Source: Candidatus Omnitrophota bacterium (GTDB taxonomy: Bacteria; Omnitrophota; Gorgyraeia; 1-14-0-20-64-10). From it: a stretch of DNA of 64,000 nt. A program made the position numbers and the translations under genes. Positions 29,970 through 41,525 of the stretch are shown in pieces (position 1 is the stretch's first letter; the number at the start of each line of letters is the position of its first letter). Under the pieces are notes generated by a model. That model did no database searches. It saw only the letters and a program-made list of their open reading frames with translations, and was not told where the DNA came from. The stretch is taken from the NCBI GenBank assembly GCA_016177405.1, contig JACOVG010000024.1, positions 7,079-71,078 of the forward strand, written 5' to 3'.

Positions 29970-30340
29970 TGGTTGGCCCCCTGGAGGGGGAGGCATTGCT
30001 GAAGTGTCAGGCCCAAGGCAGCGCGGCGCGGGCAGTAGACGCCTCCGATGATGCGTTGACAGGACCGCGGCAGAGACTCAGAATGATGAGCAATGATGCA
30101 GAAACCCAGCCGCGGCCAGCCCTGATGGCGGAACGCAAGGCGAAGAACCAGGACGGGGCGGACCGCCTCACAGTTACGCTGGCTCCCGGCCAGCGCAAGA
30201 TGCTGGAAACGATTGCGAGGGAGAACCATGTATCGCTCGCCTTCGTAGCCAGGCGGATGCTGTCCGATTTCATTCATGCTCACAGGAACAAGCGGCTACG
30301 CCTGTCGTTCGCCGAGACGCCCAGGAAAAGCGAGGCATGA
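29966..30340 (+). CDS. Ribbon-helix-helix (CopG/Arc/MetJ-like) DNA-binding protein
   Basis: The segment RLTVTLAPGQRKMLETIARENHVSLAFVARRMLSDFI is an RHH signature. An alternative start exists at the MM pair at 30083. The stop overlaps dcm. Confidence 0.55.
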   Translation: MMVGPLEGEALLKCQAQGSAARAVDASDDALTGPRQRLRMMSNDAETQPRPALMAERKAKNQDGADRLTVTLAPGQRKMLETIARENHVSLAFVARRMLSDFIHAHRNKRLRLSFAETPRKSEA

Positions 30341-31305
30341 GGAAACCGAAGCTGAGGCTCGTTGATCTGTTCGCAGGCATCGGAGGCGCCCGGATCGGCT
30401 TCGAAGCCGCCGGCTTCGAGACGGTCTACGCCAACGACTGCGATCCGAAGGTGGCGGAAGCCTACCGGCTGAATTTCGGAGAAGTCGACGGCGAGGAGCT
30501 TTTCAGCGTGATACGGAACGGAGGCATGAAGCGGGTGCCCAAGCGCTTCGACGTCCTGGCGGCCGGATTCCCCTGCCAGCCGTTCTCAGTCGCCGGGCGC
30601 AGGCGCGGATTTTCCGACGAAGGGCGGGGCGACCTACTCTTCGGGGTCGTAGAGATCCTGAAAGCCAGGAAGCCCGAAGCGGTTCTCCTGGAGAACGTGA
30701 AACATCTGAAGAACCACAACGACGAGAAAACCTTCCAGCGCATACAGGGGGAATTAAAGGGCGCGGGATACGCGATGAAAGCAGAGGTCCTGAACAGCCT
30801 GCACTACGGCAACGTGCCGCAGGCCAGAGAGCGCATCTACATCGTGGCTTTCCGCTCGCCGAGGACACTGATGAAGTTCCATTTCCCGGAGAGGATTCCC
30901 CTTTTGAGGACTATGCCGCAGATCCTGGAAAAGCACGTGCCCGAAAAGTACTACTACACGGAAGAAGACAGGTACATTTACCCCAAGCTGAAAGCGGCCG
31001 TCCGCCGGAAAGACCGCTTCTACCAGTACCGCCGCACCTACGTCCGGGAGAATAAAAGCGGCGCCTGCCCTACTTTGATGGCGAACATGGGGGCGGGCGG
31101 GCACAACGTCCCGATCGTAAGGGACGCGCAGGGCATCAGGCGGCTTACTCCCCGCGAATGCGCCCGGCTCCAGGGATTCCCCGAGTCGTTCGCGTTTCCA
31201 GCCGGCCAGGCCGACTCCCATCTGTACAGGCAGATCGGGAATTCGATGACGGTTCCGCTCATCGTCCGCCTTGCCGAAAACATAAGAATCGCCCTCGAGT
31301 CTTGA
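30337..31305 (+). CDS. dcm: DNA (cytosine-5)-methyltransferase
   Basis: C5-MTase motif I DLFAGIGG, motif IV GFPCQPFS, motif VI ENVKHL and motif X QIGNSM are all present. Confidence 0.92.
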   Translation: MRKPKLRLVDLFAGIGGARIGFEAAGFETVYANDCDPKVAEAYRLNFGEVDGEELFSVIRNGGMKRVPKRFDVLAAGFPCQPFSVAGRRRGFSDEGRGDLLFGVVEILKARKPEAVLLENVKHLKNHNDEKTFQRIQGELKGAGYAMKAEVLNSLHYGNVPQARERIYIVAFRSPRTLMKFHFPERIPLLRTMPQILEKHVPEKYYYTEEDRYIYPKLKAAVRRKDRFYQYRRTYVRENKSGACPTLMANMGAGGHNVPIVRDAQGIRRLTPRECARLQGFPESFAFPAGQADSHLYRQIGNSMTVPLIVRLAENIRIALES

Positions 31306-31314
31306 GCGCCCCCC

Positions 31315-31725
31315 ATGGCGGACACGTTCACGAAGCGGAAGCGGAGCGAAATCATGTCCCGCATCCACGCCAAGAATACGGGGATAGAAAGGCGCGCCTT
31401 CTCGCACCTCAGAAAACATCGCGTCCATTTCCAGGCCCACTACGGCAAAGCTCCCGGCAAACCGGACATCGCGGTTCCATCCAGAAAACTGGCGGTCTTC
31501 ATCCACGGCGATTTCTGGCACGGGTACCGCTTCTCCGCCTGGAGGCGCCGGATCCCCCGCGAATACTGGCGCGACAAGATAGCATCGAATATCAAGCGGG
31601 ACAGGAAGCACCGAAGGGCTCTGAAGCGACAAGGCTGGCGCGTCCTTAAGGTATGGGGCCACGAACTACTCGAAGATCCGGAGCTTGCCTGCAGGAAGAT
31701 CGCTGATTTCATGCGTACACGTTAA
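31315..31725 (+). CDS. vsr: Very-short-patch-repair endonuclease
   Basis: The Vsr signature KRSEIMSRI..KNT, PDIAV, AVFIHGDFWHG and GWRVLKVWGHEL is present. It lies immediately downstream of dcm. Confidence 0.92.
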   Translation: MADTFTKRKRSEIMSRIHAKNTGIERRAFSHLRKHRVHFQAHYGKAPGKPDIAVPSRKLAVFIHGDFWHGYRFSAWRRRIPREYWRDKIASNIKRDRKHRRALKRQGWRVLKVWGHELLEDPELACRKIADFMRTR

Positions 31726-31826: not shown

Positions 31827-32045
31827 ATGGACAGGCGCAGGGATAATTTCAAGAGGCTGGCGGCCTCAAGAACCAATGAAGTACTGAGGCGTTTGAAGAT
31901 ACTGGGGAACTGCGCCAATCGTAGCCATTACGACTACACGGAGGAGGAGGTCGCCAGGATCTTTTCCGAGATCGACAAACGGGCCAGGCAGGCGAGGGCG
32001 AAGTTCACCTTCCCGAGCGAAACCGGCGAGGAGTTCAGGATTTAG
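31827..32045 (+). CDS. Small hypothetical protein (72 aa), paralog of 35585..35833
   Basis: The segment FKRLAASRTNEVLRRLKILGNCANRSHYDYTEEEVARIFSEI aligns with FQRLATKRTQVALKRIGLVGNLTGPGYDYTPEQAAKIISAL in the downstream paralog. The stop is 2 nt before the GHKL gene. Confidence 0.5.
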   Translation: MDRRRDNFKRLAASRTNEVLRRLKILGNCANRSHYDYTEEEVARIFSEIDKRARQARAKFTFPSETGEEFRI

Positions 32046-32047
32046 CC

Positions 32048-33931
32048 ATGGCCAAGAAGCGTCCCAAAGCCGAGTCGGCTTTCCGAAGGACCCCTGAGCG
32101 GCCGGAGGGAAGCGCATGCTGGCTTTTCCCAAGCACCGATCATGGCGAGGACGATGGGTTCTCTGACTCGCAGCTGGAATACTTCCAGGGCGACCACGAG
32201 AGGCATGTCGCCAGGGAAACGATCCAGAACTCGGTCGACCAGCGCCTGGACTACAGGAGGCCCGTGTCGGTCGTATTCGAGCGCTTCGCCATGCCCGTCT
32301 CCGCGCTTCCGGGACACGCCAGCCTGCTTGATACGATGCGGCGTTGCCGGGAATTCGTAGCGGGCCAGGATAAAGCGGAACGCTTCTTCGATTCCGCAGC
32401 CAAGTTTTTAACCGGCACCCGGCTGCCGGTCTTGAAAATAAGCGATTCCAACACCTGCGGCCTCTCGGGCTCGGACATGGACAAAGAAGGCAATTGGTAC
32501 CGGCTGGTAAGGGCCGCAGGAACCAGTTCGCCGAAAGGCGTTGCGGGCGGATCTTTCGGCATCGGCAAAGGCGCGCCGATCGCAGCGTCGGCACTGAGGA
32601 CCGTCTTCTACTCCAGCATCAACGAAGCCGGCGAGCCGGTCTTCCAGGGGAAGTCCAGGCTCGTCAGCCACTACGACGGTGGCGGAGACGTCCGCCAGGG
32701 GGTCGGCTTCTACGGGACCGACGGCCACCGGGCGATACGGAACGCTGCCCTCATACCAAGCATCTTCGGGCGCAAAGAGCGCGGCACCGACATCTTCATC
32801 ATCAGCTACGCGATCGAGGGCAACTGGCTGGAGAAGCTCATCAAGCCGATCCTCTACAACTTCTGGCTCGCGATCCACCACGGCGACCTGGAAGTAACGA
32901 TCAGAGACGGCCGCGAAAAGACGATTTCGAAGGCGACCCTCGCGAAGGATCTCGCCGAACACGACTGCGGAAACGCGAGATTCTTCTTCGAAGCGGTCAC
33001 CAACCCGACGCAGACGTTTGAGAAAGACCTGCAGTACTTCGGAAACGCTTCCCTCTTCGTCAGGAAGCATCCGGATTACCCGAGCGAAGTGATGATGGTG
33101 AGGAAACCGCGGATGCTCGTCCGGGAGCGCCCGTTCCGCGCGCTGAGGGAGCCGTATGCAAGCGTGCTCGTATGCGACGACGACCGGGGGAACGACCTGT
33201 TGCGCGAACTGGAGCCGCCTGCGCACGACAAATGGGACAAGGCGCGCCACCCGGACGGGGAAGCGGCTCTGCGGGAGCTCGATCACTTCATCCGAAGCTC
33301 GCTCAAGAGCATGGGAGAGGCCGTTTCAGGAGAGCTCCAGGACATCCCCGGCCTCGACCGCTATCTGCCGGACAGCGACGACCGGGATCCGGCATTCCCC
33401 GGCGGGCCGGATGCCTTCGAGCCGTCGGAGCTCGCGACGTCCGAGGAGACGGGCCGGGAGGTGGGAGCGGCCGGAGAACCGGCCGAAGGATCGGTAGACG
33501 GCGTCCCGCGGCGGGCCGTCGTAGTGACAAGCCCGGCGGGAGGGGGGCGCCACCGAAAGGGCAAGAAAAGACTACGGCCGTCTCCTACGCCTCCTCCGGG
33601 CGAGGAAAAGGGGGAGGGGAAGCGCATCCGAACATCGGACATCCGCTTCAGGAGCTTCGTCCAGCGCGACGGCGGCGGAATCGAATACCGCGTCCTGATC
33701 ACCGGCCGCGAGCCCTGCGAAGGGGATATGCACCTCGTGGCAGTCGGAGACGACGGATCCTACGCCGCCGACGTGGAATCCGCGGTCGACGCCGACACCC
33801 GCGCTCCCTACCCGGTGAGCGGCCCAGCCATCCGGGGGCTGGCTGTAGGCAAAGGGGAAACAATCAAGCTGATCGTCCGGCTTGCATCGAACAAGAAGTA
33901 TGCGCTGGGGATCGAAGCTTATGAAGGTTAA
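32048..33931 (+). CDS. GHKL (Bergerat-fold, MORC/MutL/Hsp90-like) ATPase-domain protein, 627 aa
   Basis: The N-box ETIQNSVDQ, a G1-like LKISDSNTCGLSG and the G2 box GGSFGIGKGA are present. The C-terminal half is acidic and low-complexity, followed by a small terminal domain. There is no P-loop. Confidence 0.6.
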   Translation: MAKKRPKAESAFRRTPERPEGSACWLFPSTDHGEDDGFSDSQLEYFQGDHERHVARETIQNSVDQRLDYRRPVSVVFERFAMPVSALPGHASLLDTMRRCREFVAGQDKAERFFDSAAKFLTGTRLPVLKISDSNTCGLSGSDMDKEGNWYRLVRAAGTSSPKGVAGGSFGIGKGAPIAASALRTVFYSSINEAGEPVFQGKSRLVSHYDGGGDVRQGVGFYGTDGHRAIRNAALIPSIFGRKERGTDIFIISYAIEGNWLEKLIKPILYNFWLAIHHGDLEVTIRDGREKTISKATLAKDLAEHDCGNARFFFEAVTNPTQTFEKDLQYFGNASLFVRKHPDYPSEVMMVRKPRMLVRERPFRALREPYASVLVCDDDRGNDLLRELEPPAHDKWDKARHPDGEAALRELDHFIRSSLKSMGEAVSGELQDIPGLDRYLPDSDDRDPAFPGGPDAFEPSELATSEETGREVGAAGEPAEGSVDGVPRRAVVVTSPAGGGRHRKGKKRLRPSPTPPPGEEKGEGKRIRTSDIRFRSFVQRDGGGIEYRVLITGREPCEGDMHLVAVGDDGSYAADVESAVDADTRAPYPVSGPAIRGLAVGKGETIKLIVRLASNKKYALGIEAYEG

Positions 33932-34766
33932 TGCCAAATCCTATCCGCATCCGGTCCTGGGCAACGAAGACGATCTTGACGGCTCTTTCAGCGTGGACTT
34001 CCGCTACGAGCTGGGGAGGAAGGAAATCCTCTTGCTGCCTGCGTTCTCGATCAAAAGCCCGGCCATTGAGGAGCTCATCAGGAAGAACAGGGCGTCCTTC
34101 CTCGCCGAGGTGGAATGCCGGAGCACTTTTTTCAGGACATGCTTTTCGACCAGGAAACCACTCGAGCGCTTCTCCATCCCGGCGGCGCGGGTGCGGGAGC
34201 GGGTAACCGTAGGCTTCTATGTCTGCGCCGACGAAGACGTCAAGGGCTACCGGCCGAGCGGCTGCCATCCGGATTACGAAGGCGCCACGTTCGACGTGGA
34301 GAAGGGCGACGTGCTCGCAGCGGGGGGATTCTGCTCTTTCATAGCCGAGAAGGAGTTCGACCCCCTGCGGCCGCCGGTATCGTCTTTCATGGCCATCCGC
34401 GAGGGGCGGCACCACGAGGGCCTGATGGAGATCGATTACGACGAGGAAAAGATCGCAATCGAGCTGTCTAAAGCCGATTGGCGGGAATATGCCGGCATAC
34501 GGGGCCAGAAAGCTGCTGAGGGAGTCCTCCATGCCGCGATCGTCTTTCCCGTTCTGGTAAGCGCCATCCAGCACGTCCAGAATCCGAACTCCGACTACGA
34601 AGGCAAGAACTGGTTCGGCCGGCTCCAGACCATTCTTGAAACGAAGGGGCTCCGAGAGAGGGATCCTTTGGAAGCGGCCCAGAAGATCCTCGAAAACCCT
34701 GTTGCGAGGGCGCTGAGCGGCTTTTCCGCCCTGCTCGAACCGGGGAGCGAGCATGAGGACAGCTGA
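33921..34766 (+). CDS. Hypothetical protein (281 aa), component B of the GHKL cassette
   Basis: The ATG 33921 overlaps the GHKL gene stop (MKVNAKSYPHPVLGNEDDLDGSF...). No known motif was recognised. Confidence 0.5.
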   Translation: MKVNAKSYPHPVLGNEDDLDGSFSVDFRYELGRKEILLLPAFSIKSPAIEELIRKNRASFLAEVECRSTFFRTCFSTRKPLERFSIPAARVRERVTVGFYVCADEDVKGYRPSGCHPDYEGATFDVEKGDVLAAGGFCSFIAEKEFDPLRPPVSSFMAIREGRHHEGLMEIDYDEEKIAIELSKADWREYAGIRGQKAAEGVLHAAIVFPVLVSAIQHVQNPNSDYEGKNWFGRLQTILETKGLRERDPLEAAQKILENPVARALSGFSALLEPGSEHEDS

Positions 34767-35649
34767 AAGGCGCTGCCAGAAGATTTTCAGGCGGGCGGCC
34801 ATAGCGCGCCTCCGGTCCGAACTGCGGGACGGCAGGGCCCTGAAGGGGTACTTCGAAGAAACATTCAGGATCAAACCGAAAGAGGTCATGCTCTCGACCA
34901 TCGAGCTCAGAGGCAAGATGCCGAAGCTGAAAGCCCCAAAGAGGGACCCTGTATCGGCTGATCTCGAGAATGCGATCGCCCTGCATTCCTATTACTCAGG
35001 GTTGGATGAAACCCAGGCGTCCGACCCGCGCCTGTGGGCGTACCTGAGCCATGTCGAATTCAGGAAGTATGCCCTGGTCCGGTGGGGCCTAAGCGGCTCA
35101 TTCAAGGTTCTGCAGGGCGAGGCCGAAAAAATCAAGGCAATCAATCAGATCATCGACCACTGGTTCGTAAGCGGCAACGACCGCGATCTGCGCAGACACG
35201 CCATCGCCAGGCTCTGGTGGGCGGCGCATCTGACCTTCGCGCCGTGGGAGCGGGATCCGGAATTCTTCGCCGGCCTCAAGCGCAAGGATCCCTACCATTA
35301 CACGCGGGTCCTGCTGGCAACGCAGGACATCTACCAGCAAGTCCTGGAGCGCGCGATGGGGCGCTCCAACCGGATTTTAATCTCCATTCTGGATTATCTG
35401 GACCAAAACCCGGATTTTGCGGCGTCGCGGGAGCGGATACGAGGGTTCACCAAGGAGCTCAACCTCCTTTATGGGACGAAGAAACTGATCGGGCTGGACA
35501 GGGGCAGCCTCAGCCTCCTCATCGAGAGCGTGGCCAGCGATGCTGCCGGGGACGGAGCAGTTACAACGCAAGGAGGATCAGAAGATGGGCGCAGAGCAAG
35601 CAGTGCGGGCAGAAACGAAGGCGCAGCGGTTCCAGCGGCTGGCGACTAA
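34753..35649 (+). CDS. Hypothetical protein (298 aa), component C of the GHKL cassette
   Basis: The start overlaps the stop of B. The internal segment RLWWAAHLTFAPWERDPEFFAGLKRKDPYHYTRVLLATQDIYQQVL is followed by a low-complexity tail. There is no P-loop or nuclease motif. Confidence 0.5.
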   Translation: MRTAERRCQKIFRRAAIARLRSELRDGRALKGYFEETFRIKPKEVMLSTIELRGKMPKLKAPKRDPVSADLENAIALHSYYSGLDETQASDPRLWAYLSHVEFRKYALVRWGLSGSFKVLQGEAEKIKAINQIIDHWFVSGNDRDLRRHAIARLWWAAHLTFAPWERDPEFFAGLKRKDPYHYTRVLLATQDIYQQVLERAMGRSNRILISILDYLDQNPDFAASRERIRGFTKELNLLYGTKKLIGLDRGSLSLLIESVASDAAGDGAVTTQGGSEDGRRASSAGRNEGAAVPAAGD

Positions 35650-35833
35650 GCGGACGCAGGTGGCGCTGAAAAGAATCGGGCTGGTCGGCAATCTCACCGG
35701 CCCCGGCTACGACTACACTCCGGAGCAAGCGGCGAAGATCATCAGCGCCCTGCGCGCAGCCGTGAGCGCCGTTGAAACCAAATTCAGCCGGACCCGCGGA
35801 GCCAAGGCGTCGGAAGCCTCATTCACGCTGTAG
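35585..35833 (+). CDS. Small hypothetical protein (82 aa), paralog of 31827..32045
   Basis: This is the internal Met of ORF 35540..35833. It shares the RLA-RT..L+R..GN...YDYT.E motif with the upstream small protein and overlaps the 3' end of gene C. Confidence 0.45.
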   Translation: MGAEQAVRAETKAQRFQRLATKRTQVALKRIGLVGNLTGPGYDYTPEQAAKIISALRAAVSAVETKFSRTRGAKASEASFTL

Positions 35834-35912
35834 CATGTCTGCAGAATAGGCGGCCATTCGCGATTTTCTTTCTGATCGGCTAATTCGGGTCGCCTTTTTC
35901 TGGGCTTATACG

Positions 35913-36812
35913 ATGCCAATTGCAGAATCGAAGCTTTCCACGTGGGCTCACCAGGGCGCGATAACTGCAGCGCGCCAGACCTACAGGGCAATTCAAACAG
36001 CCCTAGAGGCCGGTTCGTCTTCCGTTGCCCCTAGAGGTTTCGAAGTCTACCTCCAGGGTTCTTATAAGAATGACACGAATGTCCGGAGCGACAGCGACGT
36101 AGACGTCGTCGTAGAGTTCCGCGAAACTTTCGGGAGAGACCTCGCGGCACTGCCGTTGGAGCAGCAAAGGGCCTACGCGCTGGCATATCAAGATGCTGCA
36201 TATAAGCTGGAGCATTTCCGGTCCGGCGTTTTAAGCGCGCTCCAAAACCATTTCGGGAGAACAGCAGTTTCCAGAGGAAGAAAATCCATAAAAGTCGCGC
36301 CCGCCTATCGGCTGCGAGCCGATGTCGTGCCCTGCATCACCTTCCGAAGGTATCTTTACTTCCGAAGCCTGGGCGACCAAAATTATGTCGAGGGAATCAG
36401 GTTTGATATACCGTCGGAAAACAACAGGACGGTCATCAACTATCCGAAGCGCCACTATGACAACGGCGTTGCCAAAAATAGTCCTGCCAGAACCAACGGG
36501 TGGTACAAGCACACCGTACGAATGTTCAAGAACGCGAGATCCAAACTGATCGACGGCGGAGCAATCGGGCAGGGCCTGGCCCCTTCCTATTTTCTCGAGT
36601 GCCTCCTATTCAACGTGCCTGACCGCTGTTTCGGAGGAGGAGATGAGGAAACGTTCTATGGCGTGCTGAACTGGCTGAACCAGGCGAACCTTCAGAATCT
36701 CAAATGCCAGAACGGCGTTGTAAACTTGTTCGGCGAATCTCCCGAGCAGTGGTCAACGAGCCAAGCATCCGAGTTGATCGGCGCGCTGGTCGGTCTTTGG
36801 AATAACTCGTAA
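35913..36812 (+). CDS. SMODS / CD-NTase-like nucleotidyltransferase (candidate CBASS cyclase)
   Basis: The motif LQGSYKNDTNVRSDSDVDVVVEF matches the GS-X9-13-[DE]h[DE]h pattern. A third acidic residue lies in the strand RADVVPCITF, and the helical C-terminus carries SYFLECLLFNVP. GC content is lower than in flanking DNA. Confidence 0.6.
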   Translation: MPIAESKLSTWAHQGAITAARQTYRAIQTALEAGSSSVAPRGFEVYLQGSYKNDTNVRSDSDVDVVVEFRETFGRDLAALPLEQQRAYALAYQDAAYKLEHFRSGVLSALQNHFGRTAVSRGRKSIKVAPAYRLRADVVPCITFRRYLYFRSLGDQNYVEGIRFDIPSENNRTVINYPKRHYDNGVAKNSPARTNGWYKHTVRMFKNARSKLIDGGAIGQGLAPSYFLECLLFNVPDRCFGGGDEETFYGVLNWLNQANLQNLKCQNGVVNLFGESPEQWSTSQASELIGALVGLWNNS

Positions 36813-36818
36813 CCCCGT

Positions 36819-37427
36819 ATGCATCCCTACAGCACTGACTCGAAAGAGCGGATATTCGTCCCCTTCTTCTTAGCCGTATTGAGCATCCTGGGTGCTCTGC
36901 TTTTTCACAAGTGGCTTGCCTTTCTAAGAATTGAACTGCCGTGGTGGTCTGAGGCTCCGTCCGTTATGGGTGTTTATGGATTATTCCACGGTTTCTTCGA
37001 TCGGGCGGCTTGGCGATGGCCTATCCTTCGGAAAATTGGCATTGTGAAGATCCCAGATCTAAACGGTTCGTGGAAGGGCGAAGCCGGTTCCTCTTTTGAT
37101 AGGCATAGCTCGGGGCGCGAGATAACCGTTGAAATCCAACAACGCTGGTCTCGAATTTCTGTGGTTTTAAGGGCGCCGGATTCCATTTCGCGTAGCTTGA
37201 TAGGCGGCCTTCTCACGGAGGATCCGATTGGAGCGATGCTCAGCTACGAGTACCTAAATGAGCCGAAATCTAATGCGCCCGCTACGATGCAGACTCATCG
37301 AGGGACGACTCGGCTAATTATCGGGGAGAATCTTCGAACGCTTGAAGGCGAGTACTATTCGGGACGTGGCAGAAGCAGCGCGGGGGTTCTCAACCTTAAG
37401 CGAATTACCCGGGATGGACGGGTCTAA
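36819..37427 (+). CDS. Two-TM effector-like protein (SLATT/Cap15-like candidate)
   Basis: Two N-terminal TM helices (FVPFFLAVLSILGALLFHKWLAF and SVMGVYGLFHGFF) precede a ~130-aa soluble domain. The gene lies 7 bp after the NTase gene. Confidence 0.55.
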   Translation: MHPYSTDSKERIFVPFFLAVLSILGALLFHKWLAFLRIELPWWSEAPSVMGVYGLFHGFFDRAAWRWPILRKIGIVKIPDLNGSWKGEAGSSFDRHSSGREITVEIQQRWSRISVVLRAPDSISRSLIGGLLTEDPIGAMLSYEYLNEPKSNAPATMQTHRGTTRLIIGENLRTLEGEYYSGRGRSSAGVLNLKRITRDGRV

Positions 37428-37442
37428 ATTTAAGAAGGAGCG

Positions 37443-38990
37443 TTGCATACGCTGACCATGGCCACCGCCAATGATGAAAAGATGATCGCCGGACTTCCGA
37501 CACAGCACCAGGCTGCTCTCAGGTGGTTCTCTGAGAATGCCGGAGGAGAATGTCAGTGGCCGGGTTCTTCTCCTGCCGGGCTGCTCGCCAGCAGAGCAAA
37601 AGGGATCTACAAGCCGCGCTGGTCAAAATATGCATTGAGCGTCCGGCAAGCTGTGAACAGCCCGTATCCAAATTTAGAGCCCTCACCGAGAGCTGATGGA
37701 ACCTGGGCTTATTCCTATTTCCAGGAGGGCAAGGATCCGCATCTGCGCGACTCCAGATATACAAACCGAGCGTTAGTCGCATGCTGGCATGATCGCGTTC
37801 CGATCGGAGTACTGAAGCAGGTTAGCGGGCGCCCAAAAGCTCGATACCGGGTGCTAGGCCTTGCCCTCGTAACAGGGTGGAAAAAGGGCTACTTCCTCTT
37901 GGAAGGATTCTCGCCCAGCGGAACAGTAAACCATGGGGATGGGACTCGTGCGCAAGATTGGAGCCGCACTGCTCCTAAACACCTGATCGCCAACATCACA
38001 TGGAATCGCCATGGGTGGAGAAATCTTTATGTGGATCCGCGTGCGGGGCACCGGTACGCTCGAAAATATCCGGGGCACGAATCGTTAAACTTCGACTTTT
38101 CCAAGAAAGGCATCGATACAGCGGATGAAGTTTATGGCCACATTGCATGGACGAGGCCGCCCGCAAAATTCGGGCCTCCCGGTTTCATCTTCTTTTATTC
38201 AAGGAATCTTGATACGGGAGGCGGCGAGATCGTGGGTGTCTATGGCAACGCGCGAATTACAGACAGAAGGAAGGTTCCTTGCAGCGGGTTCCACAACAAT
38301 GTTTTGGAGCTGAATGTCGCTGCCCAGAAGTCCTTGTCCATGCTTTTCCCCGTCCCCCTTAGAGCCAGCCGTTATTCCAACGGCAGGCTGGTTCCCCAAT
38401 GCGGCTTCACCTATATTGGAAAAACTTTGGCGGATGGAATCTTACGCGACGAGATCCATGCCCTTCACACTGCTGGCGGGCCCCGGCTTCCAGAGTTGCA
38501 GAAGCTGAAGAATATCTACTCCCTGGCAACAGGGAAAAACTACCAGGATGATTACCAGGACGACGATCTGCAGCAACAAGAGGAGATAGTCGGCCATCTA
38601 CAGATACAGAAAGTCTCAAGGCAGTCCATCGCAGAAGAGCTTCGCCGCCTCCGGCCAACTGATCCTCAGACGGTCACAATCAGGGCAAAGGCATACAAGC
38701 GGGATAACAAGACTATCGCCCAGCTCAAAATTCTGCGCGGCTTTAAATGTCAGCTTTGCCAAACACAGATCCGAAAAAGAAACGGCGGGTTTTACGCTGA
38801 GGCTGCGCATATTACCCCCAAGAGCCGCAGGGGGCTAGAGATGCCTGACAACATTCTGATTCTCTGTCCGAATCATCACAAGGAATTCGATTTAGGGGAC
38901 AGAAAAATAACGTCTCGGCTGCAGGAGAAAATCGAGTTTTACCTCAACGGTCGGTTTTTTAAGGTCGACCTGCGACTGCTGCGACAGTAA
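37443..38990 (+). CDS. HNH endonuclease with N-terminal modified-base-reader-like (SRA/EVE/PUA-like) domains; putative type IV restriction enzyme
   Basis: The C-terminal HNH motif reads FKCQLCQT...AEAAHITPKS...ILILCPNHHKEFD. The N-terminal beta-rich segments YTNRALVACWHDRVPIGVL and GFIFFYSRNLDTGGGEIVGVYGNARI resemble PUA-like folds. GC is lower (~52%). Confidence 0.65.
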   Translation: MHTLTMATANDEKMIAGLPTQHQAALRWFSENAGGECQWPGSSPAGLLASRAKGIYKPRWSKYALSVRQAVNSPYPNLEPSPRADGTWAYSYFQEGKDPHLRDSRYTNRALVACWHDRVPIGVLKQVSGRPKARYRVLGLALVTGWKKGYFLLEGFSPSGTVNHGDGTRAQDWSRTAPKHLIANITWNRHGWRNLYVDPRAGHRYARKYPGHESLNFDFSKKGIDTADEVYGHIAWTRPPAKFGPPGFIFFYSRNLDTGGGEIVGVYGNARITDRRKVPCSGFHNNVLELNVAAQKSLSMLFPVPLRASRYSNGRLVPQCGFTYIGKTLADGILRDEIHALHTAGGPRLPELQKLKNIYSLATGKNYQDDYQDDDLQQQEEIVGHLQIQKVSRQSIAEELRRLRPTDPQTVTIRAKAYKRDNKTIAQLKILRGFKCQLCQTQIRKRNGGFYAEAAHITPKSRRGLEMPDNILILCPNHHKEFDLGDRKITSRLQEKIEFYLNGRFFKVDLRLLRQ

Positions 38991-39311
38991 AGGGAGGCGG
39001 TGCGACAGTAAACAGGAAGGGAGGCGGTACTGGGTGTGCCATGCTGGATGGTGGTTAGGCTGACGCCTCCCAGTGACCCTAATGAAATGGCCCCCAAGGG
39101 GATTAAGAAGATAACCCTTGAGATCGAGGAGACCTAGAAGACGATTCGCCCAAGGGTTTTTACGGCTGTTCCAAGCCTTCTCCTGCCCTTCCTCCTCTTT
39201 ACAACTGCTGTTTTAGCCCGTCCCGCCGACGTTGAGAACATCCCGCCTGATCGCTATTTCGAAGTTGCCCTGAACGAGATCCAACAGGCCAAATCCTCCA
39301 TATGGCTCACC

Positions 39312-40670
39312 ATGTACCTCGTTGCTCTGCCGCCAACCCGACGGGATTCTAAGGTCTACCGGCTGGTGGACGCGCTGGTGGACGCCAAGGAGAGAGGCGT
39401 GGACGTTCAGGTGGCGCTGGACCGGAACATCGCCTGGACGGAGGATAACAATCTCGGATTCTGGAATTCCGCCGGGAAGAACGAGAAGGCCTACCGGTAT
39501 CTCCGGGAGAAGGGGGTGAAGGCCTACTTCGATGATGAGGCGGTCTTCACGCATGCCAAGGCGCTGGTGGCCGACCAGAAGACCGTGATCTTAGGCTCGA
39601 CCAACTGGAGTGAGGCGGCACTGACCCGCAACGTGGAAGCCAACGTCCTGATCCGGTCCAAGGCGTTTGCTGAAGAAATTCTGAAGGGTTTCGAGACGCT
39701 GAAGCTCTACGCGCCGGAGATCGGGAACTCCGAAACCGTCGTGGTGCCGCTGGCATTCCTCAACAGTAAGCAACTGCTGGGACGGATGGTGGCCGCCCAT
39801 GATGACCGGTCTTTTGACACCTACCTCTTTCTGCTCAAGGTCCTGGGTAAAAAAGGGGAGGGGAAAGAGGAGATCGCGGGTTATGAGGCGCTCAAGGAGC
39901 TGCTCGGAATCCGGGGCGAAAACGAGTGGAATAACGGGCGGGCTGTCAGGAGGGTCCTGAAGCGGCTGCAAGACAACTACGGGCTGGTCACCCTTTCTTA
40001 CAAGCGGGGAGAAGAACCGGTGGTTTCTCTGAAGGCGATAGAGGACCGAACCGGGCCGGGTTTGGCTTCCGGCGCGCAGGTGGTGGAGATTCCCGTCACT
40101 TACTGGGAATGGGGCTGGAATAAGGAATTGAGCTTTCCGGGAAGGGTGATGTACGTTCTGGGAACGATGTATTCCTCCGCGTCGCGGACGGCCCCGACCT
40201 GGTTCAGATCGGGGGATGATTTGGTGAAGAGACATGGTTTCGCAAGGATGTTTCTTCAGGACGGGTTTATGGACCTGCGGCGGCATAATCTGGTGGAGGT
40301 TCGGCCGGATCGGCTCAAGCCCGGGAATTACAGCGGCCGGAAGGCGAATCGGTACGCTCCCAACCCGCTGTATGACCCGCGGGAATTGAAACGCAGATTC
40401 ACGGAGCTTAAGGAACGCTACGGAAAAAAGAAGGTGCAAAAGGCCGCGGGCTACGCCTCGCTGGTCTACGAAGACAGCGATGTGGAGGCGGTGGAGCGGC
40501 TGATTCTGCTGGAGGAGGAGTTCGGGGCGGAAGTGGTCCAGCGGGCGGCGAGAGTTGTGGGGAAGATGCACGGCAGCAACCCCAAAAAGACGGTGGGGTA
40601 CCTGATCGCAACCATCCAGGGTATTGGGACCCGGGAAGGCCGGAAGGTTCCCCTTCCTAGTCGAAACTGA
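39312..40670 (+). CDS. Phospholipase D / Nuc-family (HKD) protein with a ~300-aa C-terminal extension
   Basis: The HKD motif HAKALVADQKTVILGSTNWS is present. The upstream in-frame sequence (39138-39311) encodes a signal-peptide-like stretch and the first beta-strands, but it is closed by a TAG at 39135 and has no ATG/GTG/TTG start. Confidence 0.6.
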   Translation: MYLVALPPTRRDSKVYRLVDALVDAKERGVDVQVALDRNIAWTEDNNLGFWNSAGKNEKAYRYLREKGVKAYFDDEAVFTHAKALVADQKTVILGSTNWSEAALTRNVEANVLIRSKAFAEEILKGFETLKLYAPEIGNSETVVVPLAFLNSKQLLGRMVAAHDDRSFDTYLFLLKVLGKKGEGKEEIAGYEALKELLGIRGENEWNNGRAVRRVLKRLQDNYGLVTLSYKRGEEPVVSLKAIEDRTGPGLASGAQVVEIPVTYWEWGWNKELSFPGRVMYVLGTMYSSASRTAPTWFRSGDDLVKRHGFARMFLQDGFMDLRRHNLVEVRPDRLKPGNYSGRKANRYAPNPLYDPRELKRRFTELKERYGKKKVQKAAGYASLVYEDSDVEAVERLILLEEEFGAEVVQRAARVVGKMHGSNPKKTVGYLIATIQGIGTREGRKVPLPSRN

Positions 40671-40833
40671 AGTGAGTCTGGGGATTCTCTTTCTGGATCA
40701 TTCCTTGGATTACCCCGACGAGCTGTGAAGCGGCCTTGAGGGCGCTTTCCGCTTCCGTGAGGGTTCCAAGTGTTCCACCAGCGCGGCATAATTCTTTCCT
40801 AAGAGCTGGTGGGTCAGTGAATTCAAGCAGCAT
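40657..40833 (-). CDS. Small ORF (58 aa) overlapping the 3' end of the wHTH-NTase gene
   Basis: The translation is MLLEFTDPPALRKELCRAGGTLGTLTEAESALKAASQLVGVIQGMIQKENPQTHFSFD. It overlaps the NTase gene end by 11 bp and has no recognised motif. Confidence 0.25.
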   Translation of the reverse strand: MLLEFTDPPALRKELCRAGGTLGTLTEAESALKAASQLVGVIQGMIQKENPQTHFSFD

Positions 40834-41389
40834 TCGGGTTTCCCTTTAGGGGGATCTTCCTGTCGGTCAGCACTTCCTCAAGGAAAGGGTCGTTTTTGTT
40901 TCGTTTCTGGCGGTATTCGTCTTCGCTGTACAGCTTGTAGTTGATCTCCCGCTGGAGCTTCTTCTCAAGGCGCGTGATTTCCCGAACGAGTTTATCCTCC
41001 ACGCTGGGTTTTCCGACGACCAGCAGATCGATGTCGGAATCCTTCCGCTGGCCGCCCTTCGCGAAGGATCCATAGATCAGGGCTACCCTTACTTCGGGAA
41101 GCCGTTCAACGAGGTTCCGCAGGGTTCCTTCCACGCCGGTCGTTTTGGCGACGATCCTTTTCAGCTCGGGGTAAAGGGGGTGGCGGGTATCCGCCTGAAA
41201 GAAACGGGCGTGGCCTCGGTATTCACTTTTAAGGAGTCCCTCCTCCGTCAGTGAGTTTAGAGCGCGTTGAAAAACCCCGGGCTTCTTCCCCAGGGTCCTT
41301 CCTACCTCCTGCATGTAGAAGGACTTCTCGGGGTTTGTGTAGAACAAACCAAGAAGAAGAAGCCGGTTTTGGCTTAAGAGCTGTTTCAT
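40823..41389 (-). CDS. Winged-HTH + nucleotidyltransferase-domain protein
   Basis: The start was set at the internal Met (MKQLLSQNRLLLLGLFYTNPEKSFYMQEVGRTLGKKPGVFQRALNSLTEEGLL = wHTH). The NTase motif LIYGSFAKGGQRKDSDIDLLVVG is present. Confidence 0.7.
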   Translation of the reverse strand: MKQLLSQNRLLLLGLFYTNPEKSFYMQEVGRTLGKKPGVFQRALNSLTEEGLLKSEYRGHARFFQADTRHPLYPELKRIVAKTTGVEGTLRNLVERLPEVRVALIYGSFAKGGQRKDSDIDLLVVGKPSVEDKLVREITRLEKKLQREINYKLYSEDEYRQKRNKNDPFLEEVLTDRKIPLKGNPNAA

Positions 41390-41406
41390 CGGGCCAATTG
41401 TCGATC

Positions 41407-41424
41407 TGCATACGATTGTATGCA
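41407..41424. promoter_or_regulatory. Perfect inverted repeat TGCATAC-gatt-GTATGCA, a candidate operator upstream of the wHTH-NTase gene
   Basis: The palindrome lies 18 bp upstream of the wHTH-NTase start codon. It sits in an AT-rich spacer. Confidence 0.35.
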
Positions 41425-41459
41425 TAATGCATAGATTTGGAAGGGAATTGTGAATCCCG

Positions 41460-41525
41460 GCCCGCAACAGAAGGGAATTGACCGGCCTGAAAAAAATCGG
41501 TATCATCAAACTCATCATGCCGTTT
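41460..41525 (+). repeat. Direct repeat copy 1 (duplicate of the tkt promoter, 5'UTR and first codons)
   Basis: This ~65-66 bp stretch is identical to 60810-60875. It includes TTGACC-17 bp-TATCAT and ATGCCGTTT. Here it is followed by only a 24-codon ORF. Confidence 0.75.

Follow-up and report, generated by a model that had tools for sequence, protein, structure and literature searches.

What do two adjacent genes in a low-GC patch of a Candidatus Omnitrophica genome encode, and do they amount to a complete anti-phage system? The genes lie at 35913-37427 of a stretch of 64,000 nucleotides (contig JACOVG010000024.1 of assembly GCA_016177405.1), which was analyzed as a whole and is called the window here. 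An earlier note, made from the letters alone, had read them as a minimal type I system of anti-phage signaling by cyclic oligonucleotides (CBASS), that is, a cGAS/DncV-like nucleotidyltransferase (CD-NTase) together with an effector carrying two transmembrane helices (2TM). Cyclase and Cap15 matches, the fold of the effector and the synteny of the pair all support this reading. The pair is a textbook type I (I-B) CBASS, consisting of CdnE and Cap15, and a previously unlabeled example of a well-known system. We put at roughly 0.88 the probability that its two genes are translationally coupled and form a functional type I CBASS operon, horizontally transferred into a Candidatus Omnitrophica defense island. 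The observations behind this answer concern the identity of the genes, the intact catalytic and specificity residues, the fold of the effector and the conserved synteny.

In the public record, the exact proteins are found in an NCBI metagenome-assembled genome of Candidatus Omnitrophica, which labels the cyclase ‘nucleotidyltransferase’ and the effector ‘hypothetical protein HYS41_04815’. Several runs in the SRR12113383-SRR12113429 range contain identical contigs. The genes can now be labeled type I CBASS (CdnE-Cap15) with 3′3′-cyclic UMP-AMP (3′3′-cUA) as the predicted signal. This adds an Omnitrophica example to a subfamily also found in bacteria of the candidate phyla radiation (CPR) and in archaea, and the pair helps to map a defense island of ~12 kb. 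Beyond annotation the result has little importance, and it raises no new question about CBASS.

Identity of the cyclase and effector genes

The two open reading frames (ORFs), ORF1 and ORF2, run in the same direction, and the ORF listing confirms the coordinates and lengths first given for them. The gap of 7 bp claimed between them holds as start minus stop, the untranslated spacer itself being 6 nt (CCCCGT). The features on which the assignment turns are as follows, with residues compared to those of RmCdnE, the CdnE of Rhodothermus marinus, and with A1 denoting a family alignment of 27 sequences.

35913-36812, plus strand: cdnE (ORF1), clade-E cGAS/DncV-like nucleotidyltransferase (CBASS cyclase) as classed by PADLOC, PDB and CD_NTase_C matches, 299 aa
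36057-36104, plus strand: catalytic G49-S50 ... D62-x-D64 segment of CdnE, with G49, S50, D62 and D64 invariant in A1
36321-36323, plus strand: third catalytic acidic residue D137 (ADVVP strand), aligning to RmCdnE D129
36438-36440, plus strand: N176, the ‘lid 1’ residue that, by likeness to RmCdnE, would select the uracil acceptor; aligns to RmCdnE N166
36705-36752, plus strand: donor-pocket C265 and E278-Q279-W280, identical to RmCdnE C252 and E265-Q266-W267 and invariant in A1
36819-37427, plus strand: cap15 (ORF2), two-TM beta-barrel CBASS effector, 202 aa, from Pfam, PADLOC and PDB matches
36846-37004, plus strand: Cap15 membrane region with a helix at aa 10-35, a PWW loop and a helix at aa 49-62, from AlphaFold2 secondary structure
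37044-37403, plus strand: Cap15 cyclic-dinucleotide receptor beta-barrel, aa 76-195, from modeled strands and a PDB fold match

The PADLOC Cyclase model PDLC00788 matches ORF1 at 2e-110 and spans aa 1-298 of its 299 residues. All significant PDB matches of ORF1 are CdnE enzymes, with RmCdnE (6e0k) on top at 1.8e-84 and 53.7% identity across 283 aligned residues, followed by those labeled Ef (2.9e-38), Em (1.2e-36), Lp (1.4e-35) and Cl (1.9e-31). More than 2235 homologs were found. The cGAS/DncV-like active site described from the letters is present: the motif GSYKNDTNVRSDSDVDVVVEF makes up residues 49-69, and the ADVVP strand holds D137. D64 aligns to RmCdnE D62, and the position of D137 is occupied by D in 25 of the 27 members of A1. 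The helical C-terminus was likewise read correctly, as the identical protein in the public record has the helical CD-NTase domain CD_NTase_C (PF26305) among its precomputed Pfam domains. By its similarity to characterized CdnE enzymes, ORF1 is classed as a clade-E CD-NTase.

ORF2 is Cap15, of the S-2TMbeta family. Two Pfam models were reported for it, Cap15_CD_rec (PF18153; 5.5e-32, 111.1 bits, cut-off 31.2) and Cap15_TM (PF23471; 1e-06, 29.7 bits, cut-off 28.2). In addition, the PADLOC model of the 2TM CBASS effector matches at 1.6e-71, and the receptor domain of Yersinia aleksiciae Cap15 (YaCap15; PDB 7n34) at 3.9e-12. The locus had been proposed to be either SMODS-SLATT or CD-NTase-Cap15. 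Both Cap15 models speak for the latter, and a SLATT identity of the effector was rejected, as no SLATT domain matched in Pfam at E<=0.01.

The AlphaFold2 model of Cap15, built from 55 homologs (pLDDT 91.1, pTM 0.84), comprises an N-terminal strand at residues 2-6, helices at 10-35 and 49-62, and eight strands between 83 and 195. A structural model of the C-terminal domain and the presence of transmembrane helices were the checks set for this protein. The modeled barrel superposes on that of YaCap15 (7n34/7n35), its best fold match in the PDB, with a TM-score of 0.85 (normalized by target) and a root-mean-square deviation of 2.4 Å, and the Cap15 transmembrane region is there. Transmembrane helix 1 (TM1, ~aa 11-37) is strongly hydrophobic (Kyte-Doolittle 19-residue maximum 2.38), and P41, W42 and W43 are nearly invariant among homologs.

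As a side observation, the extreme N-terminus of Cap15 (36819-36836, aa 1-6) is conserved among the 55 homologs, with H2 and Y4 invariant and M1 nearly so. Residues 2-6 are modeled as a beta-strand, which would imply that this strand pairs with the barrel at the C-terminus. In the window protein, the match to the solved YaCap15 chain is confined to barrel residues 76-197.

Conservation, transfer and predicted signal of the pair

Related loci were scanned using one genome per species, which yielded 80 loci with a cyclase relative of 35-53% identity. They span many bacterial phyla, CPR and archaea (Methanoperedens, Bathyarchaeota, Methanosarcinales, Aenigmarchaeota). A Cap15 homolog sits directly 3′ of the cyclase on the same strand in 70 of these loci, and two of the ten without an adjoining Cap15 end at a contig edge. 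In five Cap15-less CdnE loci (a subset of L059, L060, L062, L066 and L080-L083), a patatin-like phospholipase gene is found directly downstream; its taking the place of Cap15 is effector swapping within one cyclase subfamily, typical of CBASS. Homologs of the other genes around the pair in the window, namely the HNH protein, the small upstream ORF, the PDC-M33 genes, the PLD-like protein and the PDC-M05A protein, occur within 6 kb in none of the 80 loci, and clustering of all flanking ORFs revealed no other family common to more than 12 of them. The conserved unit is exactly two genes, with no third conserved gene. In the closest non-self relative (locus P0002, 57%), CdnE stands with Cap15 amid housekeeping genes.

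The earlier note also had it that Cap2 and Cap3 are absent, and this is what the neighborhood shows. Among the ten proteins encoded at 31827-41518, searches with Pfam, PADLOC and NCBIfam returned no Cap2/Cap3 (E1/E2, JAB), HORMA, TRIP13 or type IV accessory genes. A tblastn search of a phage genome collection gave no match; PHROGs holds families for both the CdnE and the Cap15 proteins.

The pair also differs in composition from its surroundings. GC content is 0.541 in ORF1, 0.524 in ORF2 and 0.532 in the HNH gene that follows, as opposed to 0.599 for the whole window; GC at third codon positions (GC3) is 0.56-0.63 in these three genes versus 0.74-0.79 in neighboring ones. The 3.1-kb patch at 35891-38990 ranks in the lowest 0.3% of equal-sized windows for GC, and the dip exceeds chance. 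Thus, the low GC claimed earlier is real relative to the flanks, with the measured values at 52-54% rather than 50-52%. On the 5′ side, an 81% nucleotide similarity with other PDC-M33 cassettes ends at 35835, just 5′ of cdnE. The low GC and GC3, together with the cassette similarity stopping at this point, lead to the conclusion that the CBASS/HNH patch is a separate, horizontally acquired module beginning at about 35836, and the horizontal acquisition proposed in the earlier note is thereby backed. Flanking repeats were considered as insertion scars of the patch and rejected, since only short matches at chance level were found. The Rfam scan of the whole window gave no match, and no nearby tRNA marking the insertion was found.

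Which signal would such a pair use? The best plasmid match, pRHOM17201 of R. marinus (NC_015970.1 18400-19853), is informative in this respect. Its ‘nucleotidyltransferase’ gene carries the RmCdnE sequence (PDB 6E0K/6E0L) and shares 51% identity with the cyclase of the window. Starting 2 nt 3′ of it is the gene of a ‘hypothetical protein’ of 194 aa, which shares 52% identity with Cap15 of the window. The two operons share gene order and strand, cyclases of 51-54% and 2TM proteins of 52% identity, the compared catalytic residues (window D64 and D137), and the base-selecting N, C and EQW. They differ in about half of their residues, in their hosts (a thermophilic Rhodothermus versus a Candidatus Omnitrophica metagenome-assembled genome), and in their neighbors, R. 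marinus having a methyltransferase and a helicase where the window has PDC-M33 and the HNH gene.

RmCdnE produces 3′3′-cUMP-AMP. In lid 1, N166 forms a hydrogen bond with the acceptor uracil, the N166S mutation diverts the enzyme to cAA, and C252 and E265 stay apart, so that adenine fits the donor pocket (PMC10442399). The window CdnE matches RmCdnE at every published base-selecting residue, all of which are invariant in the family alignment. Based on the gene-for-gene match with the R. marinus operon, which we infer to be orthologous, and on the identical specificity residues, we predict with moderate confidence that the signal of the window CdnE is 3′3′-cUA. The earlier note had regarded the nucleotide signal as unknown; it is predictable instead. 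The cyclic di-pyrimidine synthases LpCdnE, EfCdnE and ClCdnE, to which ORF1 has PDB matches of 2.9e-38 to 1.9e-31, provide a useful comparison. They too belong to type I operons with Cap15 and keep the lid-1 Asn, but their donor pocket is closed by an (R/Q)xW motif that shuts purines out (PMC10442399). The window CdnE has ExW (E278-Q279-W280) as RmCdnE does, and a purine donor is therefore expected.

Proposed mode of action and competing explanations

We propose that phage infection would switch CdnE on, as judged from characterized relatives, and that CdnE would condense UTP and ATP to 3′3′-cyclic UMP-AMP. This would bind the cytoplasmic beta-barrel of Cap15, which may then oligomerize in the inner membrane via its N-terminal helices and disrupt the membrane, such that the infected cell would die ahead of the release of phage progeny (abortive infection). 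Two characterized systems lend shape to this proposal. Cap15 barrels sense uracil-containing cyclic dinucleotides (PMC10419184), and Cap15 oligomerization damages the membrane (PMC10419184; PMC10442399); YaCap15 itself is such a sensor, which oligomerizes and disrupts the inner membrane (PMC10419184). The Yersinia aleksiciae CdnE-Cap15 (7N34/7N35) resembles the window effector in having two transmembrane helices and a beta-barrel cyclic-dinucleotide receptor (TM-score 0.85), although the two barrels are only 22-24% identical. The type I-B CBASS of Staphylococcus schleiferi is likewise a two-gene operon of a clade-E cyclase (Ssc-CdnE03) and Cap15, and there membrane disruption proceeds without lysis (PMC10686824). 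As for YaCap15, oligomerization on ligand binding and damage to the inner membrane are known for Ssc-Cap15. Ssc-CdnE03 makes cGAMP, unlike the cUA predicted for the window, and is activated by phage RNA (cabRNA) on a positively charged surface.

Several points weigh against a functional CBASS operon of this kind. First, the Pfam SMODS model (PF18144), whose search had been suggested as a check, stays below threshold on ORF1 (21.3 versus 26.5 bits, aa 19-73 only), while the match to the PADLOC CBASS cyclase spans the full length. A PF18144 record is also missing from many close homologs of ORF1, for which reason we consider the model insensitive for this subfamily. Pfam being ambiguous, the identity of ORF1 was settled by PADLOC, PDB and synteny instead. 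Second, the NCBIfam model NF053871 (‘DS2_2_antiphage’, ‘anti-phage nucleotidyltransferase’) matches ORF1 over its full length with 315.8 bits, under the cut-off of 350 bits; by the NCBI threshold and on sequence score, ORF1 is to be classed as a close relative of that equivalog, not as the equivalog. A literature search for the origin of the name ‘DS2_2’ found nothing. Third, of the two N-terminal transmembrane helices claimed, both are modeled and Cap15_TM matches, yet only the first is strongly hydrophobic. TM2 (~aa 45-65) is weakly so (15-residue Kyte-Doolittle maximum 1.08) and is modeled as 14 residues. Such weak hydropathy is usual for the Cap15 family (median 1.27), and Pfam Cap15_TM spans TM2. 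Fourth, a scan for the sigma-70 consensus only, with counts at chance level, turned up no promoter of that type upstream of cdnE, and a terminator-like hairpin lies at 35877-35892, just 5′ of the cdnE start; terminator-like sites are no commoner in the scanned region than expected by chance. Fifth, with 54% identity to RmCdnE, the window CdnE could make another product even though its lid residues are the same. Sixth, a phage RNA activates staphylococcal CdnE03 and CdnE01, but there is no sign that this carries over to the window CdnE, and the RmCdnE-like subfamily has no known trigger. Finally, the nucleotide product, ligand binding, toxicity and phage defense of the pair are all inferred.

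There is a slim chance that the RmCdnE-like CdnE-Cap15 subfamily works in the manner of Panoptes, or that the HNH nuclease cooperates with the pair as a composite cassette. Taken separately, each of these fares slightly worse. In the former, which is the main conceptual rival, signaling would be inverted: a dinucleotide made constitutively would keep Cap15 off, and a phage sponge depleting it would release the killing. OptE of Panoptes is, like Cap15, a member of the S-2TMbeta family but works in the opposite modality, and Panoptes (OptS mCpol plus OptE) shares the two-gene synthase-effector layout (PMC12657218). Moreover, many of the cyclases in CBASS need no trigger for activity in vitro (PMC10686824). 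However, the Panoptes synthase is an mCpol domain, with a ligand that holds the effector off, while the window synthase is a full-length CD-NTase. Characterized CdnE-Cap15 pairs are ligand-activated, and the full length of the window effector is covered by the Pfam Cap15 models and those for 2TM effectors of CBASS. Mainly because of the difference in synthase, we regard inverted signaling as quite improbable.

A comparably improbable explanation sees the pair as a remnant, decayed or silent, that is intact in sequence, though unexpressed or non-functional in its host. Its foreign composition, the lack of a promoter-like site upstream and the hairpin just before the start codon would fit such a fate, as would the gene calls listed for two loci spanning the CBASS stretch (L001 and L003), which show no cap15 gene. 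On the other hand, neither ORF is shortened compared with its family, both keep every invariant family residue, the identical sequence was recovered from several samples, and the promoter scan covered the sigma-70 consensus only, with counts at the chance level.

Still less probable is a three-gene unit, in which the HNH protein encoded at 37443-38990 would have been co-acquired with CdnE and Cap15 as a second effector or a sensor. The three genes lie on one strand with a common low GC of 0.52-0.54, and the gap between cap15 and the HNH gene is 15-30 nt, depending on the HNH start. Against this, an HNH homolog within 6 kb is found in 0 of the 80 related loci, and is also absent at P0002 and from the R. 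marinus operon; the HNH domain is similar to two type IV enzymes, TagI and EcoKMcrA, and the searches detected neither SAVED nor any other nucleotide-sensor domain in the protein. The HNH gene was therefore rejected as a CBASS component. It shares the low-GC patch, as had been noted, and is a neighbor of the system rather than part of it, given that none of the 80 loci carries a homolog.

Lastly, the reading of ORF1 as a non-signaling nucleotidyltransferase (an MNT-type antitoxin or antibiotic nucleotidyltransferase) beside an unrelated membrane protein, to which an above-threshold NTP_transf_2 match (25.1 bits, cut-off 21) next to sub-threshold SMODS might point, is effectively refuted, as that match is confined to aa 42-89, the full-length matches are CBASS cyclases and RmCdnE with CD_NTase_C in place of any grouping with MNT or antibiotic enzymes, and the partner is Cap15 in a pairing conserved in 70/80 loci.

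The surrounding defense island

The CBASS pair sits in a defense island of ~12 kb that is flanked by nuo genes and a two-component system. In order, the island contains a Dcm-type methyltransferase with Vsr, PDC-M33A/B/C, the CBASS pair, the TagI/McrA-like HNH gene, a PLD/DrmC-like gene and PDC-M05A. Its left edge, adjoining the nuo genes, is formed by the Dcm-type cytosine methyltransferase and the Vsr mismatch endonuclease that follows it (30337-31725, plus strand); two small ORFs with weak matches to ribbon-helix-helix (RHH)/BrnA-like proteins precede the methyltransferase.

Downstream of the pair, the HNH protein (37443-38990, plus strand) is 515 aa long, or 510 aa if started from the ATG at 37458. 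Gene callers differ on its start, with 252 aa in locus L001 and at least 410 aa in locus L087. The HNH domain at the C-terminus (aa ~380-503) is similar to the modification-dependent TagI (6ghs, 7e-07) and EcoKMcrA (6ghc), and the N-terminal ~370 aa have no family match. The protein is probably a restriction enzyme of type IV whose DNA-reading domain is novel. Next comes a phospholipase D (PLD)-family protein (39312-40670, plus strand; PLDc_2, aa 17-130, DrmC-like), whose C-terminal extension of ~320 aa has no family match and near which no other DISARM genes were found. The last member (40823-41518, minus strand) is a MarR-like winged helix fused to an MntA-like nucleotidyltransferase and matches the PADLOC candidate PDC-M05A at 1.1e-51, with no evident HEPN or partner gene next to it.

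Upstream of the pair, the PDC-M33 genes (32048-35649, plus strand) give full-length matches to this PADLOC candidate system of 4.9e-124 for A, 1.3e-59 for B and 1.6e-33 for C, the last also matching DUF6339. Window positions 31894-35835, which cover this cassette, are 81% identical in DNA to two groundwater metagenome contigs (L091 and L092). The similarity ends 2 nt past the stop codon of a small 76-aa ORF (35603-35833), and different cargo lies beyond. In both contigs, a 71%-identical homolog of this ORF likewise follows PDC-M33C. The small ORF was considered as a CBASS regulator and rejected, being absent from the 80 loci. It belongs to the PDC-M33 cassette instead, because its homologs follow PDC-M33C and the similarity ends at 35835.

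The 76-aa ORF is paralogous to a 72-aa ORF (31827-32045) upstream of PDC-M33A (BLASTP E 8e-12), and a truncated 49-aa ORF precedes PDC-M33A in L092. The family of these small proteins (72/76 aa) has 1284 representatives at E<=1e-3, with no Pfam or PHROG model. PDC-M33 may thus be a five-gene cassette, bracketed by two paralogous small proteins.

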